Source of the DNA: Candidatus Omnitrophota bacterium
Lineage (GTDB): Bacteria; Omnitrophota; Gorgyraeia; Gygaellales; Profunditerraquicolaceae
DNA length: 64,000 nt
Assembly (NCBI GenBank): GCA_016208765.1
Contig: JACQXK010000001.1
Span: 218-64,217 of the forward strand
Reading direction: 5' to 3'
The notes under the pieces are model-generated. The model was not told the origin of the DNA, made no database searches, and saw only the letters and a program-made list of their open reading frames with translations. This document shows positions 39,180 to 49,969 of this stretch, piece by piece. A program made the position numbers and the translations under genes. Every line of letters starts with the position of its first letter. Position 1 is the first letter of the stretch.

Positions 39180-40466
39180 GTGATATTAAAGGCTAAGCCA
39201 ACAAAGGTTTTGATTATAACTTTGGCTTTAGCCTTATTTTTTTGTCTTTTTACTGCTTCTGCGTTTGCCGGCGCTCTTTCTATCCCCATGGTCGGCCCCT
39301 CAGCAGGCGGCTGCACTGCTAACTACCAGCAAATCTTCACCACTACCTTTAATGACTTAAGCGGCTGGCAGCATGTTAACTATGTCTACTTTGTAATTAA
39401 CACTACTGCTTCTGGCTCCAGCTGTTTTTATGGCTACTACAATCAGAATACCAACAAGCTCTATATTAAAAATGATGCAGGTAATGCTTGGTTAGGTGGA
39501 TTTGCTCCCGGCTCAAACAATCTAATTGAAAACTCTTATGTTAAGCTAAACTGCGCTCAAACTACAGTCTCAGGCTCAGGACAGACTATGTTTGTAAACT
39601 GGGCAGTAACTTTTAAGCCTCCTTTTGTCGGTACAAAAAATATGTATCTTTATGTCAGGGACGACTCTAATGCTTATCAGCCTCTTACTAAAAGAGGCAC
39701 CTGGACTATTCCTAACCATACCCCAACAATAGTATCAGTTATTCCTAATCAGGGAACCTCTCAACCTGAGCAAGCCTTAACCTTTACCACTATTTACCTT
39801 GATACTGATACCTGGATTAATATTAAGTATGTCTATTTCCGAATTAGCCCCTCTCTTACAGGTTTGACTAATTGCTTCTATGGCTACTATGACCAGGATA
39901 ACAACAAGCTCTACCTAAGAAATGACACTAACACAGCCTGGCTTGGAGGCTACACCCCCGGCTCAAACTATACTATTGAAAACTCTTATGCTAAATTAGA
40001 CTGCTCTAAGACAATTGTTACAGGAAATTCCGATACCTTAAGCATTAACTGGCAGATTATCCCTAAAACCACCTTTACCGGCACAAAGAACCTCTATCTT
40101 TATGTCAGAGATAACAATAATGCCTACCAAGGCTGGTTACAGAAGGGGACATGGAGTATTGATAATACAGATACTACTCCGCCGCAGATTACCCAGCTTA
40201 GCCCTGTGGATGCAAGCCGTATTTATGAAAATGCTTCTGTTGTTATTAAGCCAACAATAACTGATAACAATCAGTCTGCAGTTACTTATCAATTTTCTGT
40301 TGATGGAGTAGTTAAACAGGTTTGGTCAAGTAGTGCTACTTATAATTGGGTAAGTCCTTTAGCAGGTGCGCATACTATTAAGGCAGAAGCAAAGGATGAG
40401 GCCGGGCAGTCTATCAAAAGTGCTGAGGTATTTATCTTAAGAAAACCCATGGAAGTTGCAAATTAA
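39180..40466 (+). CDS. secreted protein with two tandem ~150-aa beta-rich repeats and a C-terminal Ig-like domain
   Basis: Signal peptide ending SAFAGA. Repeat 1 (…NYVYFVINTTASGSSCFYGYYNQNTNKLYIKNDAGNAWLGGFAPGSN…NMYLYVRDDSNAYQ…GTWTI) and repeat 2 (…KYVYFRISPSL…CFYGYYDQDNNKLYLRNDTNTAWLGGYTPGSN…NLYLYVRDNNNAYQ…GTWSI) are clearly homologous. GTG start; 6-nt gap to the RHS gene. Confidence 0.6.
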   Translation: MILKAKPTKVLIITLALALFFCLFTASAFAGALSIPMVGPSAGGCTANYQQIFTTTFNDLSGWQHVNYVYFVINTTASGSSCFYGYYNQNTNKLYIKNDAGNAWLGGFAPGSNNLIENSYVKLNCAQTTVSGSGQTMFVNWAVTFKPPFVGTKNMYLYVRDDSNAYQPLTKRGTWTIPNHTPTIVSVIPNQGTSQPEQALTFTTIYLDTDTWINIKYVYFRISPSLTGLTNCFYGYYDQDNNKLYLRNDTNTAWLGGYTPGSNYTIENSYAKLDCSKTIVTGNSDTLSINWQIIPKTTFTGTKNLYLYVRDNNNAYQGWLQKGTWSIDNTDTTPPQITQLSPVDASRIYENASVVIKPTITDNNQSAVTYQFSVDGVVKQVWSSSATYNWVSPLAGAHTIKAEAKDEAGQSIKSAEVFILRKPMEVAN

Positions 40467-40472
40467 CCATAT

Positions 40473-43400
40473 ATGAAAAAGTCAATCATCAAAATTCTTT
40501 CTTTGGCTTTAATCATTACGCACTTATTTACAATTTGTTTAAGGGATGTTTCCTTTGCTGCTGGGTCAAGCACAACTACTTCTAACACAAGTACAACTAA
40601 TTCTGGCGCAAGTACAACTAAAAGCACAACAACTTCTATCCAATCGCAGTCTAAGTCAACAAGCAGCGACACTAAAACCAAGAGCCCTGCTCTTAGTTCA
40701 GCCAAATCAATGAGCCTATCCGCAGCAAGCAGTTCTTCGTCTCCACAAATGAGCACAAGTTTTAACACTTCAGTTTTAAAATCTTTTCAGAGCGATCCCT
40801 TTACCGGAAGAGCATCGTTTTCCGTTTCTATAAGTGTTCCGGTAGGCCGGAAAGGTATTCAGCCTAATATTGCGCTCACCTATGCCTCAGGTTCAGGTAA
40901 CGGCATATTAGGCGTAGGTTGGAGCTTAGAGTTAGGTTCTATTCAGCGTTCCACTAAACGCGGTACTCCAAAATATGATTCTACGGATACTTTTATTTTT
41001 AACTCCTTAGGCTCAAATCAGGAATTAGTTAATATTGGCGGTAATGAATACCGTACTAAAATTGAAGGCAGTTTCTCAAAGTTTACTTTTGACGGCACAA
41101 GCTGGGTAATCACTGATAAAGGTGGCACAAAATACTACTTTGGGCAAGATGAGGCTTCAAGACAGATAAATTCTAAGGGAATATTTTCATGGAATTTAAA
41201 TAAGGTTGTTGATCTGCAGACGAATTTTCTTGAAATAGAATATTTTGTTGATCAGGGCCAGATATACCCAGTTAAGGTTAAATATACAGGTAATCAATCC
41301 CAGAATCTTGAGCCTTTATGTGAAGTTCATTTTGTTTTCACTGATCGCGCTGACTATTCTTTTAATTACCGCAGCGGCTCAAAAGTTGTAACTGCAAAAA
41401 GGCTTACTGAAATTAAGTCTAAATTTCGCAGCAATATAATAAATCAGTACAAAATAGAGTATCTTGAAGAACAAAATGCAAGGCCGCTTTCCTTAATAAA
41501 GCAAATTACACTGTTTGATGCATCTTCAAACAATTCTTATCCTCCGGTAGTATTTACTTATCAGGAATTAAACCCCAGTTTTACTGATATTCAGCAATTG
41601 CCGATCTTACGCCGCAGTGATGATCCTTTAAGGAATTCCGAGGAGTACAGTTTTTTCCGGTATCAAAGCGAGAACAAAGTATTTAGCACTATGCTTGATA
41701 TAAATTCAGATGGATTGGTTGACTGGATACAGCGTAAAAACAATTCTCCGTATACAAATTACTCTGTTTTGTTAAATAACGGCTCAGGGTTTAATGAGCC
41801 TCTTGGCTGGGGGCCTTTATTGGGAGATTTAGCAGAAGGGGCAGTTGAATGGAGCAATGACGGTTTATACCGGGATTTAGGAGTTTTAGATATTAATGGC
41901 GACAGCCTTGCTGACAGGGTTTATTATAAAATTAATGATCCAAGATACCAGGTTCAGCTAAATACAGGGTTAGGCTTTGATAATTTTTATACTTATTTTA
42001 GCCAGTTGTATGGCGGCGGAGAAGCATATGATTGTATAACAGGAATTTCTTCAAATGGGATCAGGTCTGAAACAATGGACATAAATGGTGACGGTTTTGC
42101 TGACAAAGTAATGGCAACAAGAAATGGCTCTCCGTATAATTCCATGGATGTGCAGCTAAATAACGGCTCCTCTTTTGGCCAGATAATAAAATGGCCGGTT
42201 TCATGGGAAGACAGTAGGCTTACATCAGAGGGGTGGAATTATCTAAGGGCATCCTCGGGTAATACAACCTTACTTACAATCTTAGATATTAACGGTGACG
42301 GTTTGCCAGACAGAGTGATGCGAAAATATGATGCGCCTTATACTGGTTTTGATGTCCAGCTTAATAATGGCAGTGGATTTGATAAGCCTGTGGTTTGGGG
42401 GCCGCTACTTTATAACTGCGGGCCAGAAGCATCTTCTCCAGAGTGGAGCGATAACGGCCTTTATAAAAGATTAGCCCTTATTGATATGAATGGAGACGGC
42501 CTGCCTGACAGGGTGCATTATGAAGATGGAGATAATAAATATGAGGTGCAATTAAATAACGGCCATGGTTTTGAAGCTACTTATGTGTATTGGACAAATA
42601 TTGGCTCCCGTGGACAGGAATTTGATTGTATCACAGGTTATTCTGTTGGCCCGTATGGTGTGCGCGCTGACGTATTTGATATTAATGGTGACGGCCTGCC
42701 GGATAAGCTTACCAATAAAATAACAGGCGCTCCTTATGATTATGTGGAAGCCAGATTAAATAATAATCCTGTGCCTGCAGGTTATCTTAAGGAAATCTCA
42801 AACGGCATCGGAGGCTCAGTAGCAGTTACCTACAAGCCATATAAAGGTAAGGATAACTCAACTTACGACCCACAAAAACTCTTACCGTTTTGTGTCTGGG
42901 TGGTTGATTCTATTACTCAAAACTCAGGTTTTGAACAGCCGATAAATACCCATAGTTTTAAATACGACTCTGGATTTTTTGATTTTAAGGATCGCGAATT
43001 CCGCGGCTTTGGCTATGCAAAAACCACTGATTCCGAAGGTACTTCCAGCGAAAGCTATTTTAAACAGGACAGCATCTTTAAAGCAAGGCCATATAAACAG
43101 GAAGTAAAAGATAAAGACAACAAGCTTTATTCAAAAACAGAAAACACCTGGCAAAGTGTTGAGCTTTATCCCGGAGTTAACTTGCCATATCTAGTTCAAA
43201 CTGATAATTATGTTTATGATCCTGATAATTCCGACAATTACAAACAAACCCGCGTAAAATACGAATATGATTCTTATGGTAATCCTAAAAAAGTCATCTC
43301 TGAAGGTGAGGTTAATGTAATTGGCGATGAGAAGACCCAGGTTACGGAATATATTTATAATACTACTGATTGGATTATCTCTTGCCCTAAATCTACTACA

Positions 43401-46400
43401 CTTTTAGATAAGAACCAAACTAAAGTTTCTGAAAAGCGCTTCTACTACGATAATCATGCCAGCCTTGATGAAATCCCGGCAAAAGGAATACTAAGCAAGG
43501 AAGAAAGCTACCTCAAGGATCCAATTAAAAATACCCAAAAGTATATATCATCAAGCTATGCTTATGACAGTTATGGTAATTTAACCAGCTCAACTGATGC
43601 CTTGGGTAGGATCACCTCAATTGTCTATGACACAGTGCAGTTTTCCTATCCAGTGCAAACAACCAATGCCTTAGGTAAAAGCGTAAAAACTGTTTATTAC
43701 GGAATTAACGATTCTCTACAAGATGCAATTACTGGCTCAGGTTTACCCGGCCAGGTAAAATTCACCGAAGATTACAATACTCAAAAAAATTATAATATCT
43801 ATGATTCTTTGGGTAGAATTACTAAGGCTATCGGCCCGCTTGATTCGGAGGACTCTCCAGGAGCAATCTACGAATATGATTTATCAAGCCAGCCGATTAA
43901 AGTTGTCAGAAAAGTTAAGGTTGATTATTCCGCTCAACCTGCGTATCTTACAAGTTATTCTTTTTATGATGGCTTGGGCCGTGTGATTGAAGATAAAACT
44001 CCTGCTGAAAATAATCCCATAAATAATCAGCCCCGCCAGATAATCTCAGGCCTTGTAAGATATGATTCCCGCTGCCAGATTAAGGAGAAGTACTTGCCTT
44101 ATTTTGTGGATGCCTCAGCAAACTACGAATCTCCTGTATATAATACTCCGCACTCAAGTTTTATTTACGATGCTTTAGGCCGCCTCACCCAAAGCATTAA
44201 CCCGGATTTAACCAGCTCTAGTGTTTTATACGGAGTTTGGTTCAAGGCCACTACTGATGAAAATAACCACTCTAAGGGTTATTATTTTGATTCCTATGGA
44301 AAAATTACCAAAGTAGAAGAGCATAACAGTGGTCAGATTTATACCACTAAATATGAATATGACACATTAGGTAATCTTATTAAGCTTACAGATAATCAGA
44401 ATAATGTTACCCAGATTTGGTATGATTCACTATGTAGGAAAATAAAGATGTCAGATCCAGATATGGGTATCTGGCTGTATGAATATGATGCCTTGGGGAA
44501 TCTTATCAAGCAAACCGATGCCAAGAATCAGGTTTTGGAATTCCACTATGATTCTTTAAATAGGCTGACTAACAAGCTTAACTCAAGTAACCCAAGCAAC
44601 CCAATAACCCTGGTAACTTACTCTTACGACGACCCCGGCAAAGACCATTGCCTTGGCCGTCTTTCCAAAATAACTGATCTATCCGGCTCAACTGATTTTT
44701 ACTATGACAAATTAGGTAGAGAAGTTAAATCCACAAAAACTATTACAGGCTCAGGTACTTATACTGTTGAGCGCATCTATGATGCTTTAGACAGATTACT
44801 CACTCTTAAATACCCCGACTCTACACTCATAACCTACAGCTATAATCCTCAAGGAATTGAAAAGGTGCAGGGACTGTCCCCGCAGGGGACTGTCCCTTAT
44901 ATTCTAAATATTGATTACTCTCCCACAGGCCAACTGCTCAAGGTGCAATATGGCAATGGCACTCAAACAAACTACGCTTATGAGCCTAATACCCTAAGGC
45001 TAAATAATATCGTTACCCAATCACCAAGCGGTAAAATCCAGGACCTAAGCTATCAGTTTGATAATACCGGTAACATCAGGAACATAGTTGATGCAGTAAA
45101 CACCGCTACTCAAAGTTTTGTTTATGATGACCTAAGCCGTCTTATTCAAGCAAACGGCTCTTATGGTGCGCTTACTTACTCTTATGATTCCATAGGAAAC
45201 ATGATTAATAAAGAAGGTGTTAATTTAACTTATGGCAAAGGCGGTAAGCTTCCTCATGCTGTTACTCAATACGGAAATGACTTGTCTATTGATTATGATG
45301 CAAATGGAAACATGATTACAAAAGGCGACCTATCTCTAATCTATGATGCAGAAAACCGCCTCAAAGAAGCTCAAAGAGCTCCTCCACAACCGGTAACTAT
45401 CAGTATCACCCTAAAGCCGGGATGGAATTTCCTCTCGCTTCCAATAATCCCTCAGGATACTAAAGTAAACTCAGTTTTGGCTCAAATCTCCGGAAAGTAC
45501 TCTCAAATATCCCGCTATAGCCCTAATACCAAAACCTTTGAGCATAATGTTGCTAATACTAAGTTTGATCAGTTCACTGATTTTGAATACGGCAAGGGCT
45601 ATCAAATCTATATTACAAGTACAACAGATGTTGACTTAAATATTACCGGCACACTACCATTAACTACTCAAAACATCGGTCTTGTTACAGGAGAGAACTT
45701 GATCTTTTGCCCAAAGACAACCGAGACTACAGTAGAAGCAGCGCTATTTCCTTTAAAGCTTGATACAGATTATTCTAAGGTTGTTTACTATAACAAATTC
45801 TTAAATAAGTTTGAAGAATACTCAAGCATAAAACAGGAATTTACGACCCTAAAACCCGGAACCAGCTATTATCTTTACTGTTTAAAAGATACTACTCTAA
45901 CTGTATCCGGCTCTCAACAACCACCAGTTAGTTTTACTTATGATGGCGACGGAGGAAGAGTGAGAAAGGGACTGTCCCCGCAGGGGACTGTCCCTGAACA
46001 ATGGACCACCTACATCGGCTCCCTCTACGAAATTAACTCTGACGGCACTACTACTAAACATATTTTCTCCGGCTCAAACCGTATTGCCTCGTCATTGCGA
46101 AACGCCGCAGGCGTTGAAGCAATCTCGTATTTCCATAGTGATCATTTAGGAAGCTCTAATATTATCACTGACTCAAGTGGCAAGCAGATAGGCTTTACTG
46201 AATTTACTCCTTATGGCTCAACCTTTAAACAAACAGGAACCTTTGATCCAAAATACAAATTCACCGGCAAAGAGCTTGATTCTTCCACTGGATTATATTA
46301 TTATGGTGCCAGGTATTATGATCCGCTCTTTGGCAGATTCATTACTCCAGACACCATCGTCCAAGCTCCCTATGATCCACAGAGTTTAAACCGATATTCT

Positions 46401-47330
46401 TACTGTCGAAACAACCCGATAAATCTGGTTGACCCTACCGGACACTCGTGGAAGAGTTTTTGGAAAAAGTTCGGTGGTGCCATAGCTTCGGTGGTAGTGG
46501 GAATAGTGGTAGGAGTATTTACTGCTGGTATTGGAACCGCCTTTTACACTTCAATGATGGGTGGTAGTGCGTTTTGGGGTGGGGTATTAAGTGCTGCGAC
46601 TACTGGTGCACTAGCAGGTGCCGCTGCCGGAGGTGTAGGTGGCGCCTTCTATGGGCAGAATATAGGTCAATCAATGTTAATGGGGGCGGCGTTTGGCGCC
46701 CTTAGCGGGGCGGTCTTTGGTGGCATGATCAGCAAGGTTGGTGGACCTGATTGGAATTGGAAGGTTGGGCTTGAAAGGGTTGGATTATCTGCCATTGCCG
46801 GTGGAGGTATATCCGAGTTGGCAGGGGGATCTTTTGAGAATGGGGCGATGTTCGCCGGCGCTATTGCGGGAGCAGATTTTCTATATAGGGGTATCGTAAG
46901 TACTAAGCCTGCAGGAAAGAATGTAGGTGCCTCTATGAAAACAGCACAAGATAATGGCTTGCCAAAGTTGGATGCCAATGGTAAAGCTCTTATGGTGGAT
47001 AATAAGCCTGTAGTTATAAATACTCCGAAATATAGTAATGTCGGGTTTGGGTCAAGAGTTGGTGATATTAGCCTGGGGAATGGTCTCACTGGAGAAACAG
47101 GGCCTGTTATGAGTGGTTTAGGCCGGTTTGTTCCCGGTTTCCAAAGGTTTTCCCTTGCTCATGATATAACAGGTGATTTTTTAAGTAGAACCTTTGGCGG
47201 CACAGTCAATGCCGCTGCCTTTAATTTTGAAACAATGCCTGTGCTATATGGGCTTAATGCAGCGGGGTCGCTAATCAATGATAGCCCAGGTATGATTGGG
47301 TACTATGAAGAAAGTTGGAATGATAGATAA
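40473..47330 (+). CDS. giant secreted SpvB/FG-GAP/RHS-repeat polymorphic toxin (TcB-TcC 'BC'-like) with a glycine-zipper-rich C-terminal tip
   Basis: Layout: signal peptide; S/T-rich linker; SpvB-type N-terminal domain (…SFSVSISVPVGRKGIQPNIALTYASGSGNGILGVGWSL…); seven DINGDGLPD-type FG-GAP repeats; many YD repeats; an inserted ~185-aa domain (45381-45930); RHS core (YFHSDHLGSSNII…GARYYDPLFGRFITPD…NPINLVDPTGHSW); a ~290-aa tip starting about 46447 with GxxxG-rich hydrophobic segments. Confidence 0.9.
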   Translation: MKKSIIKILSLALIITHLFTICLRDVSFAAGSSTTTSNTSTTNSGASTTKSTTTSIQSQSKSTSSDTKTKSPALSSAKSMSLSAASSSSSPQMSTSFNTSVLKSFQSDPFTGRASFSVSISVPVGRKGIQPNIALTYASGSGNGILGVGWSLELGSIQRSTKRGTPKYDSTDTFIFNSLGSNQELVNIGGNEYRTKIEGSFSKFTFDGTSWVITDKGGTKYYFGQDEASRQINSKGIFSWNLNKVVDLQTNFLEIEYFVDQGQIYPVKVKYTGNQSQNLEPLCEVHFVFTDRADYSFNYRSGSKVVTAKRLTEIKSKFRSNIINQYKIEYLEEQNARPLSLIKQITLFDASSNNSYPPVVFTYQELNPSFTDIQQLPILRRSDDPLRNSEEYSFFRYQSENKVFSTMLDINSDGLVDWIQRKNNSPYTNYSVLLNNGSGFNEPLGWGPLLGDLAEGAVEWSNDGLYRDLGVLDINGDSLADRVYYKINDPRYQVQLNTGLGFDNFYTYFSQLYGGGEAYDCITGISSNGIRSETMDINGDGFADKVMATRNGSPYNSMDVQLNNGSSFGQIIKWPVSWEDSRLTSEGWNYLRASSGNTTLLTILDINGDGLPDRVMRKYDAPYTGFDVQLNNGSGFDKPVVWGPLLYNCGPEASSPEWSDNGLYKRLALIDMNGDGLPDRVHYEDGDNKYEVQLNNGHGFEATYVYWTNIGSRGQEFDCITGYSVGPYGVRADVFDINGDGLPDKLTNKITGAPYDYVEARLNNNPVPAGYLKEISNGIGGSVAVTYKPYKGKDNSTYDPQKLLPFCVWVVDSITQNSGFEQPINTHSFKYDSGFFDFKDREFRGFGYAKTTDSEGTSSESYFKQDSIFKARPYKQEVKDKDNKLYSKTENTWQSVELYPGVNLPYLVQTDNYVYDPDNSDNYKQTRVKYEYDSYGNPKKVISEGEVNVIGDEKTQVTEYIYNTTDWIISCPKSTTLLDKNQTKVSEKRFYYDNHASLDEIPAKGILSKEESYLKDPIKNTQKYISSSYAYDSYGNLTSSTDALGRITSIVYDTVQFSYPVQTTNALGKSVKTVYYGINDSLQDAITGSGLPGQVKFTEDYNTQKNYNIYDSLGRITKAIGPLDSEDSPGAIYEYDLSSQPIKVVRKVKVDYSAQPAYLTSYSFYDGLGRVIEDKTPAENNPINNQPRQIISGLVRYDSRCQIKEKYLPYFVDASANYESPVYNTPHSSFIYDALGRLTQSINPDLTSSSVLYGVWFKATTDENNHSKGYYFDSYGKITKVEEHNSGQIYTTKYEYDTLGNLIKLTDNQNNVTQIWYDSLCRKIKMSDPDMGIWLYEYDALGNLIKQTDAKNQVLEFHYDSLNRLTNKLNSSNPSNPITLVTYSYDDPGKDHCLGRLSKITDLSGSTDFYYDKLGREVKSTKTITGSGTYTVERIYDALDRLLTLKYPDSTLITYSYNPQGIEKVQGLSPQGTVPYILNIDYSPTGQLLKVQYGNGTQTNYAYEPNTLRLNNIVTQSPSGKIQDLSYQFDNTGNIRNIVDAVNTATQSFVYDDLSRLIQANGSYGALTYSYDSIGNMINKEGVNLTYGKGGKLPHAVTQYGNDLSIDYDANGNMITKGDLSLIYDAENRLKEAQRAPPQPVTISITLKPGWNFLSLPIIPQDTKVNSVLAQISGKYSQISRYSPNTKTFEHNVANTKFDQFTDFEYGKGYQIYITSTTDVDLNITGTLPLTTQNIGLVTGENLIFCPKTTETTVEAALFPLKLDTDYSKVVYYNKFLNKFEEYSSIKQEFTTLKPGTSYYLYCLKDTTLTVSGSQQPPVSFTYDGDGGRVRKGLSPQGTVPEQWTTYIGSLYEINSDGTTTKHIFSGSNRIASSLRNAAGVEAISYFHSDHLGSSNIITDSSGKQIGFTEFTPYGSTFKQTGTFDPKYKFTGKELDSSTGLYYYGARYYDPLFGRFITPDTIVQAPYDPQSLNRYSYCRNNPINLVDPTGHSWKSFWKKFGGAIASVVVGIVVGVFTAGIGTAFYTSMMGGSAFWGGVLSAATTGALAGAAAGGVGGAFYGQNIGQSMLMGAAFGALSGAVFGGMISKVGGPDWNWKVGLERVGLSAIAGGGISELAGGSFENGAMFAGAIAGADFLYRGIVSTKPAGKNVGASMKTAQDNGLPKLDANGKALMVDNKPVVINTPKYSNVGFGSRVGDISLGNGLTGETGPVMSGLGRFVPGFQRFSLAHDITGDFLSRTFGGTVNAAAFNFETMPVLYGLNAAGSLINDSPGMIGYYEESWNDR
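44870..44896 (+). repeat. 27-nt GC-rich tandem-palindrome insert GGGACTGTCCCCGCAGGGGACTGTCCC inside the RHS ORF (copy 1)
   Basis: Read directly. Each half, GGGACTGTCCC, is palindromic around a central base. About 74% GC in an AT-rich gene. In-frame, encoding GLSPQGTVP. Confidence 0.7.
45969..45995 (+). repeat. identical 27-nt GC-rich tandem-palindrome insert inside the RHS ORF (copy 2)
   Basis: 27/27 identical to 44870-44896, same reading frame (GLSPQGTVP), 1.1 kb downstream, immediately 5' of the block that is duplicated at 49038. Confidence 0.7.
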
Positions 47331-49036: not shown

Positions 49037-49100
49037 ACCACCTACATCGGCTCCCTCTACGAAGTCAACTCTGACGGCACCACTACTAAACACATCTTCA
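49037..49100 (+). other. orphan RHS gene fragment (recombination scar) homologous to 46005-46070 of the main RHS gene
   Basis: CCACCTACATCGGCTCCCTCTACGAA is 26/26 identical to 46006-46031, followed by about 85% identity for ~40 nt. It encodes TTYIGSLYEVNSDGTTTKHIF, preceded by an in-frame TAA, then diverges (RNQDAFHNHL, stop). Confidence 0.6.
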
Positions 49101-49255: not shown

Positions 49256-49969
49256 ATGGATAAAAAATTACGAAAGATTCAATTAGAAGTTTTAAGGTTA
49301 TTCTCAAATAAGGCAAAGAAGTTTGCTCTTTCTGGGGGTACTGCGCTTGAGCTATGTTATTTGCACCATCGTTTTTCCTCTGATTTGGATTTCTTCTCTC
49401 CGAAATATGACATTAAGGAAATTGAAAACCTGATTGCTTTTTTTGAAGAGAAGCTTAAAACAAAAATTAAACTTGAAGCAGATTTTGCCATTGCTGAAAA
49501 AGCCAGGGTGAGGTTTTACACCGTGTAATTAAAAGGACAGAAGAGGCCGCTGAAGCCTGATTTTGGTGAAGATGTTTTAATAAAAAGCCCTGAAATAAAG
49601 AAAACCGGAGGCATAAGGGCTTATTGCGCTAAGAATATTTATTTTCAGAAGATTGTTGCAATAACAGGAACGCAATTTGAATTTGACCGGATAGGAAGGC
49701 GGGTTTTGCAAGGTAGGCAGGCGGCCAGAGATGTCTATGATATTTATATGCTTTCAAAGAAAATAATGCCTTTGCATTTATTCCTAATAACAATTCCTGA
49801 ACAGTTTCGGCGCGGGATGGTGCATTGGTATAGATCGTTTTCTCGTAATGAACTGAAGTTAGAGTTGCTTGATCTTGACATTTCCGACAAGAATTTTGAT
49901 TCGCAGGAAATGATCCAATATTTGGAAGATGAAATAAAATTGTTTGTGAAAGAAGGAATCAAGAAATGA
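49256..49969 (+). pseudogene. AbiEii/DUF1814-family nucleotidyltransferase gene interrupted by an in-frame TAA (49526-49528)
   Basis: Track ORFs 49256-49528 and 49706-49969 are in the same frame, and the frame between them is open except for the single TAA. N-terminal …ALSGGTALELCYLHHRFSSDLDFFSP… is the NTase motif of this family. C-terminal …GRQAARDVYDIYML… continues the family. Confidence 0.6.

Follow-up and report, generated by a model that had tools for sequence, protein, structure and literature searches.

Two identical 27-mers, GGGACTGTCCCCGCAGGGGACTGTCCC, lie in a single rearrangement hotspot (RHS) toxin gene of a Candidatus Omnitrophota bacterium (contig JACQXK010000001.1), within a stretch of 64 kb that is referred to here as the window. 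They are probably copies of an element of the repetitive extragenic palindromic (REP) type, linked to REP-associated tyrosine transposases (RAYT) and carried as passenger insertions in loops of the RHS gene, rather than a signal specific to RHS genes. Each 27-mer, or 29-mer when the closing A·T pair is counted, would represent two copies, head to head, of the 13-nt palindrome GGGGAC-W-GTCCCC, in other words a minimal REPIN, and its folded single strand would be the substrate of a RAYT (TnpA-REP). These enzymes are HUH single-tyrosine transposases, kin of the IS200/IS605 TnpA, which cut and rejoin folded single strands and thereby scatter copies in a genome. With nine stop-free codons, an intragenic insertion would never truncate the protein, and copies would persist where nine residues rich in glycine, proline and serine do no harm, such as the beta-hairpin turns of an RHS shell. 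The RHS gene would have taken two such passengers, together with an insertion of a second palindrome (type B) approximately 100 nt further 3', and no cassette would be delimited by them. We infer that a RAYT moved the two window copies, and the original prediction of a tiny in-frame mobile palindrome is supported in substance, given the RAYT-linked, REP-type behaviour of the motif, with mobility supported by comparison only.

Two identical hairpins in the window

Both copies are perfect and lie on the forward strand (Table 1), and the 27-mer was not matched in any of 100 shuffles of the window. The general description in the original prediction is accurate: the two 27-mers are identical, 20 of the 27 positions in each are G or C (approximately 74%), each is assembled as GGGAC-T-GTCCC, CGCAG and GGGAC-T-GTCCC, and both are read as GLSPQGTVP in the frame of the host open reading frame (ORF). 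The position first given for copy 1 was correct, and that for copy 2 (45969-45995) was one base off. Identity between the copies extends by one further base on each side, to 29 nt (AGGG...CCCT), and their starts are 1098 nt, or 366 codons, apart. Copy 2 is preceded by the residues YDGDGGRVRK and followed by EQWTTYIGSLYE. No other 27-mer, intact or decayed, was found elsewhere in the window, as had been claimed, and a scan for half-sites returned only chance-level matches with one or two mismatches (8664, 23992 and 31114). The two 27-mers are also the strongest GC-rich hairpins of the whole window, and an Rfam search of the region 44700-46300 matched no family. The heptamer CCGCAGG occurs at 20 sites in the window against 4.1 expected from shuffles (e.g., 7078, 15476, 17852 and 20295). 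This excess was considered as a trace of further cryptic elements and rejected, the palindromic context being present only at three RHS sites; it is probably a codon-context effect, most of the other sites being CCG-CAG-G (Pro-Gln) codon pairs.

When single-stranded, the 29-nt element forms a hairpin whose 13-bp stem has a T·T mismatch between two runs of 6 bp and whose GCA triloop is closed by a C·G pair, and C(GNA)G triloops form DNA mini-hairpins of exceptional stability. The DNA folding energy is -12.8 kcal/mol for copy 1 (z -4.8) and -13.1 kcal/mol for copy 2, and none of 200 shuffled sequences folded as stably, while the RNA hairpin of the 27-mer reaches approximately -22.5 kcal/mol, far past its shuffled controls. 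Besides, a compensatory GGT...ACC pair replaces GGG...CCC in the outer stem at four loci from other genomes (L054, L066, L067 and L081), and the sequences flanking the core remain complementary over a mean of 2.9-4.2 nt, against 0.15-0.43 nt in controls (4.2 against 0.15 nt in the low-GC loci). These compensatory variants and the complementarity past the core indicate that it is the hairpin that is conserved. The element has the REP-type form of a short imperfect stem-loop with a conserved T·T mismatch and also the REPIN architecture, in which two inverted units of 12-13 nt, separated by a 3-nt spacer (5 nt at the P0123 loci described below), fold as one hairpin. There is no stop codon in the nine codons in any of the six frames, so that an insertion leaves the protein untruncated.

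The additional complementary flanks vary from copy to copy, even within ORFs (L154 at 4422, 6047 and 7470; L110 at 2502; L029 at 6325; and others), one intra-ORF example of an extended palindrome being AGAAATGG-27-mer-CCATTTCT. Such copy-specific flanks give the impression that the neighbouring target was copied in inverted form upon insertion, or that the palindrome grew by template switching.

Dispersal of the element and its linkage to RAYT genes

An exact-match scan for the 23-nt core of the element, in which each species was represented by one genome, returned at least 119 genome loci where approximately one match was expected by chance. The hosts among the matches listed belong to at least five phyla (Omnitrophota, Planctomycetota, Acidobacteriota/Aminicenantes, Actinomycetota and Pseudomonadota) and include a cultured Pseudoduganella isolate, and the GC content of the loci ranges from 36 to 74%. 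A metagenome scan that was biased toward AT-rich flanks added 40 further loci, whereas no match was found in the viral contigs scanned, which gives no sign of a phage vector. The number of loci per metagenome-assembled genome (MAG) among the matches listed was at least 12 in the gammaproteobacterial CAVPYY01, at least six in CAVRXC01 and at least six in DASTVB01, and one to three in each of the Omnitrophota MAGs; tandem arrays with a period of 42-46 nt occur in GC-rich gammaproteobacterial MAGs. Taken together, the genome and metagenome scans found a common dispersed REP-like repeat, an outcome that the original prediction had itself set against a special role at the RHS locus. A "family" of ORFs near the motif at 10 loci was discarded: a different GC-rich repeat, in a single gammaproteobacterial MAG, had been spuriously translated.

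Copies of the element are found both within genes and between them. Loci with less than 50% GC contained 67 non-redundant copies, of which 34 were intragenic, located well within an ORF of 200 aa or longer, and 23 intergenic. In one Omnitrophica locus (L058) the element occupies the interval from rpmF to plsX, the C-terminal end of plsX, in frame, and the interval from fabH to fabD. Further copies in frame were seen in genes for an aminoacyl-tRNA synthetase (twice) and a dTDP-glucose dehydratase, and in other RHS genes (three copies in L140). A metagenomic ORF of at least 564 aa (L129, 1964-3655) contains 22 half-sites, as singletons and doublets, and is rich in GLSP and GTVP peptides. The frame that gives G(L/Q)SP(Q/A)GTVP is used by 24 of the 34 intragenic low-GC copies (P = 1e-5), a bias that points to translation of the inserts and to selection against the frames rich in cysteine and arginine.

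This biased frame, and the fact that the peptide recurs among numerous RHS homologues, invariably in the form GLSP-x-GTVP, could also be read as evidence that GLSPQGTVP is a functional RHS peptide, such as a linker or a site for proteolysis or glycosylation, and that the palindrome is incidental. We consider this exceedingly unlikely, given that conservation is at the DNA level, 27 of 27 positions including the third codon positions, over genomes of 36-74% GC, that the same DNA is found in non-coding sequence, in either orientation and in each of the six frames, and that no synonymous recoding of the peptide was seen in the homologues. Moreover, most RHS homologues are without the peptide, and the copies in L172 decay by ordinary point mutation. 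The breadth of the distribution bears likewise on an assembly or sequencing artefact, for instance an adapter or chimeric sequence added twice. A GC-rich, perfectly identical, palindromic sequence in an AT-rich gene would fit such an origin, and the RHS region does break short-read assemblies, since Logan contigs begin inside the gene; nevertheless, an artefact is hardly credible: the motif recurs in assemblies made with numerous pipelines and technologies (MEGAHIT, SPAdes and long-read MFD MAGs), a cultured isolate has it as well, it is always in frame in long ORFs, and homologues contain diverged and decayed versions of it at matching codon positions.

The evidence for a link with transposases comes from the neighbourhoods of the dispersed copies. 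A phmmer search with the Escherichia coli RayT protein against all ORFs of the 119 listed loci gave matches in six loci; the six RayT-like ORFs also grouped together in an all-against-all ORF comparison, all of them matched PF01797, and their HUH motif and catalytic tyrosine align with those of RayT. The protein of L067 additionally exceeds the cut-off of the NCBIfam model REP_Tyr_transpos (NF047646). Six RAYT-type genes in 0.86 Mb compare with approximately 0.2-0.65 expected at a density of one to three per 4-Mb genome (P for at least six, approximately 1e-7 to 6e-5). The 27-mer or its half-sites lie on both sides of the RAYT gene in L011 (Planctomycetota) and in L064 and L067 (Actinomycetota), and three copies of the 27-mer lie just 5' of the RAYT-type gene of L047. 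A RAYT gene flanked by the same repeat, the arrangement of a REPtron, is present in these Planctomycetota and Actinomycetota loci and was not found among the Omnitrophota RAYTs examined. Additionally, P0123, which is 85% identical to the L011 enzyme, has doublets of GGGGACWGTCCCC on both sides of its gene, and its relatives are flanked by GGGGACATCCCC at 77% RAYT identity and by GGGGACATTCTGC...GCAGAATGTCCCC at 64%. The flanking repeat differs in these relatives, and REP and RAYT therefore vary together in this Planctomycetota clade. The P0123 locus is conserved in six contigs from Planctomycetota, in the order DUF202, RAYT and alpha-2-macroglobulin (A2M).

The RAYT of the Omnitrophota is a single-copy gene for a protein of approximately 160 aa, located either between genes for a sigma-70 factor and a proton-translocating pyrophosphatase (H+-PPase) or next to a DUF192 gene. 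It is flanked by longer hairpins that start with GGGAC and end with GTCCC(C), which share with the 27-mer the basal stem only. These neighbourhoods, and that of the Planctomycetota RAYT (DUF202, RAYT and A2M), were seen across many samples (L162-L167, L177-L184, L186 and L188-L191), and their conservation would fit domesticated transposases that are kept vertically as single copies.

Several observations weigh against the RAYT-linked interpretation. A resident Omnitrophota RAYT would have to be able to mobilise the 27-mer, and this is the main gap in the argument: no RAYT flanked by the 27-mer was found among the Omnitrophota or the other low-GC lineages examined, none is encoded within the window, and the RAYT-like ORFs of two low-GC metagenomic loci (L154 and L150), considered as cognates, were rejected because their flanks are not the 27-mer. 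The RAYT types that are flanked by the 27-mer are only 26-31% identical to each other, and with a REP that has already changed at 77% enzyme identity, one strict enzyme-hairpin pairing cannot explain the cross-phylum identity, which covers the whole 27-mer with its loop and mismatch. There is also no consistent GTAG tag. The four bases 5' of GGACTG... are ATAG, AAAG, GTAG, ACAG or GCAG in low-GC loci and CCGG, TTGG or GTGG in high-GC loci, GTAG itself precedes six of the 67 low-GC copies, and the window copies carry GCAG and AAAG, so the 27-mer falls outside the GTAG-tagged REP superfamily (PMC3733652). Furthermore, the window contains only two copies in 64 kb, both within one gene, and the copies in YD repeats have a single orientation and frame throughout, which could reflect gene conversion among RHS genes and not independent transposition. 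The argument as a whole is comparative.

A more far-reaching proposal would be that the 27-mer is a distinct, horizontally spreading "protein-decorating" mini-REPIN lineage that has crossed at least five phyla intact, independently of any one RAYT clade. According to this proposal, which as a whole we regard as unlikely, the favoured frame would encode a self-complementary, beta-hairpin-extending peptide, G(L/Q)SP(Q/A)GTVP, the element would lead a largely intragenic life in compact Omnitrophota genomes, and the identical in-frame RHS copies at hairpin turns would also act as portable microhomologies for in-frame deletion, duplication and exchange of shell segments.

The host gene and its insertion sites

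The host protein consists of a signal and Ser/Thr-rich N-terminus, SpvB, FG-GAP and TcdB_toxin_midN regions, an RHS/YD shell and a Gly-zipper-like C-terminal region, and its closest homologues are RHS proteins with 62-65% identity, mostly named Candidatus Omnitrophota. An alignment with 35 homologues was used to judge whether the 27-mers are inserts. At the position of copy 1 (site 1) the loop is short in most homologues, and at that of copy 2 (site 2) most of them are without 9-12 residues. The motif had been described as replacing a few residues of the YD-repeat context, which is imprecise, as in comparison with the homologues the copies are net insertions of approximately 9-12 residues into loops. 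Variant or decayed 27-mer peptides are present at site 2 in P0021 (GLSPTGTVPEQW), P0019 and P0020, and P0019 has a derivative peptide at site 1 too. In the homologue DNA, the copies of L172 show ordinary point-mutation decay and L173 has a variant that differs in the loop only. Residues 1300-1999 were modelled with AlphaFold (pLDDT 92); in this model the tip of a beta-hairpin (strands E162-170 and E173-183 of the modelled segment) is formed by copy 1, and copy 2 falls within a loop at 536-543, where confidence is lower than anywhere else in the shell (pLDDT 75-85). In two homologues, P0003 and P0027, a LamG/Laminin_G_3-like domain of approximately 200 aa occupies exactly the loop of copy 1 (equivalent to 44868-44897 of the window), which marks this loop as a highly permissive site of the YD shell.

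The proposal that the 27-mers are a recombination or cassette-exchange signal is not borne out, since the motif is dispersed in unrelated genes and in intergenic DNA of many genomes. In its specific form, the copies would be RHS-specific recombination sites that border a swappable 1.1-kb module, made of YD repeats and an inserted domain, or that guide the replacement of the C-terminal toxin. Perfect 29-bp direct repeats placed 1098 nt apart and in frame would indeed allow a RecA-mediated deletion that keeps the frame, and several other RHS genes contain two or three copies (L140, L154 and P0024). Copy 2 is also adjacent, across a gap of only 10 nt, to the block that is repeated downstream as an orphan fragment, as had been noted; the orphan starts at 49037 and not at 49038. 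We nonetheless consider recombination sites very unlikely. Most copies of the motif are outside RHS genes, its position differs among RHS genes, and the YD segment between the copies is kept in every one of the 35 homologues aligned, regardless of the motif. Approximately 18 homologues with neither 27-mer contain the inserted domain, and P0019-P0021, which do have the site-2 motif, are without it; the domain varies independently of the 27-mers, which consequently do not bound a cassette. Repeats confined to RHS genes at the borders of a variable segment, as expected of cassette boundaries, were not what we found. In the known recombination between RHS cores and orphans, C-terminal toxins are displaced at a conserved PxxxxDPxGL core, and the present locus resembles that system in pairing an RHS toxin gene with a downstream orphan core fragment. 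It differs in that the 27-mers are off the core/toxin junction, are not RHS-specific and contribute no base to the orphan.

Another explanation would have the hairpins retained as exapted nucleic acid signals that pause the ribosome or RNA polymerase at domain boundaries, pause replication or shield the mRNA from 3' exonucleases. In favour of this explanation, the hairpin has a high stability as RNA (-22.5 kcal/mol), and REPs elsewhere have been credited with mRNA stabilization and termination (PMC3733652). Both copies are perfect matches to the family consensus despite a site-2 insertion that is common to diverged homologues, and copy 2 with its 12-nt 3' flank is identical to L173 at 41 of 44 positions although the adjoining codons differ, a match that suggests gene conversion, re-insertion or constraint at the DNA level. 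Recent re-insertion or gene conversion would give the same pattern of conservation; besides, the inserts occupy many different loops with no positional logic across genes, and the copies in L172 decay freely. On balance, we give exaptation a small chance of being correct.

The third palindrome of the gene, the type-B insert, has the same C(GCA)G loop as the 27-mer and lies approximately 100 nt 3' of copy 2, with a predicted folding energy of -9.7 kcal/mol (z -2.3). CGTC is located directly 5' of CATTGCGA, at 46089-46092, as in five of nine copies collected. Its outer arms recur with co-varying inner stems in L010, L017, L046, L055 and L061 (Omnitrophota and Planctomycetota loci), and in L010 a 27-mer is nested within a type-B palindrome. 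At this third site, homologues contain either the type-B peptide SLRGSEATEAIS (P0024 and P0035) or a derivative of the 27-mer (GLSPQGTIP in P0019; also P0021), and the structural model places the insert at a beta-hairpin turn (578-582).

Table 1. Location of the palindromic inserts, the host gene and other features of the window
Feature	Position	Strand	Description
Candidate REP doublet (mini-REPIN), copy 1	44869..44897 (core 44870-44896)	+	AGGGACTGTCCCCGCAGGGGACTGTCCCT; GLSPQGTVP, aa 1467-1475
Candidate REP doublet (mini-REPIN), copy 2	45967..45995 (core 45968-45994)	+	29-mer identical to copy 1; GLSPQGTVP, aa 1833-1841
Type-B insert	46093..46123	+	CATTGCGA-AACGCC-GCA-GGCGTT-GAAGCAAT; in frame, encodes SLRNAAGVEAIS; family different from the 27-mer
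RHS host gene	40473..47330	+	2285-aa fused TcB/TcC-like polymorphic toxin; Pfam PF03534, PF12256, PF05593, PF13517
Inserted domain	45381-45929		183-aa beta-rich domain in the RHS shell (PPQPVTISITLKPGWNFLSLP...)
Orphan RHS core remnant	49037-49099		63 nt (TTYIGSLYEVNSDGTTTKHIF); 92% identical to 46005-46067
Tandem duplication in the ORF 5' of the RHS gene	39423-39574 / 39873-40024 and 39624-39679 / 40074-40129		450 nt, internal; 71-75% identity
AbiEii-family toxin gene	49256-49969		Split into ORFs of 90 and 87 aa

Other features of the locus were recorded in passing. The domain inserted in the RHS shell was modelled with high confidence, gave no significant match in a Pfam search and is present in about half of the close homologues and missing from the rest. 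No ORF continues from the orphan core remnant. The ORF just 5' of the RHS gene (428 aa, with a weak Big_7 Ig-like match) contains an internal tandem duplication. The split AbiEii-family gene is either a pseudogene or a case of strain variation: a near-identical Logan contig (L175, 2539-3252), which aligns ungapped over 800 nt with few mismatches, has an intact AbiEii gene of 237 aa followed by the same helix-turn-helix (HTH) gene.

Relation to known repeats and implications

REP and REPIN sequences mobilised by RAYT (TnpA-REP) have been described in E. coli, Pseudomonas and Stenotrophomonas (PMC3116915, PMC8266576). TnpA-REP processes folded single-stranded REPs that bear a bulge, and in REP-RAYT pairs the repeat and the enzyme change together (PMC8266576). 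The 27-mer resembles these systems as a short, GC-rich, imperfect palindrome that forms a single-stranded DNA hairpin with a conserved mismatch, occurs as close inverted doublets at many dispersed loci and as tandem clusters in some genomes, directly flanks genes of the Y1_Tnp/RAYT type and, in the Planctomycetota clade, changes together with the RAYT. In contrast to classical families, its doublet is far more compact (27-29 nt, with a 3-nt spacer) and has no consistent GTAG tag; approximately half of its copies in low-GC genomes lie within ORFs, whereas classical REPs are mostly extragenic, and the identical sequence spans several phyla, unlike classical families, most of which are specific to a lineage.

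The closest precedents are intragenic. Intragenic REPs and closely spaced REP dimers have been reported in Opitutus terrae and other species (PMC3733652). The GTAG/CGTC REPs of O. terrae are in-frame singletons or dimers in functional genes, sometimes twice per gene, with a dimer spacing of 1-3 bp and with tRNA synthetases among the hosts, and the PVC-group host is a further shared feature; their sequence is different, and RHS genes are not given as hosts (PMC3733652). Of the two tags described there, CGTC accompanies the type-B insert of the present gene, and the 27-mer consistently bears neither GTAG nor CGTC. Rickettsia palindromic elements (RPE) are likewise in-frame palindromic repeats in coding genes, whose proteins remain functional and where the inserted segment has a surface location, but they measure approximately 100-150 nt, are limited to Rickettsia and have no reported link with RAYT, while the present element has 27 nt, many host phyla and RAYT linkage (PMC3733652). 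The strings of the 27-mer gave only unrelated primer matches in the full-text literature, and the sequence was not found in the text or supplements of the REP catalogue paper (PMC3733652). The earlier claim that such a motif had not been described therefore holds for this exact sequence and not for its kind, since intragenic in-frame REPs are known from O. terrae and Rickettsia (PMC3733652). We assign the 27-mer to the established REP/REPIN class, within which it is a new member of the intragenic sort reported in these two groups.

For annotation, these palindromes should be treated as passenger REP insertions and not as RHS machinery, and GLSPQGTVP should not be labelled as a toxin motif. The locus offers a clean example of a REP family that is small and stop-free enough to live inside the genes of streamlined, uncultured Omnitrophota. 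Besides, the positions of the inserts mark permissive loops of large beta-shell proteins, which could aid the engineering of Tc/RHS cocoons. Overall, the presence of the same 27-mer beside distantly related RAYTs in several phyla conflicts with the usual picture of REP-RAYT systems as lineage-specific and vertically inherited.

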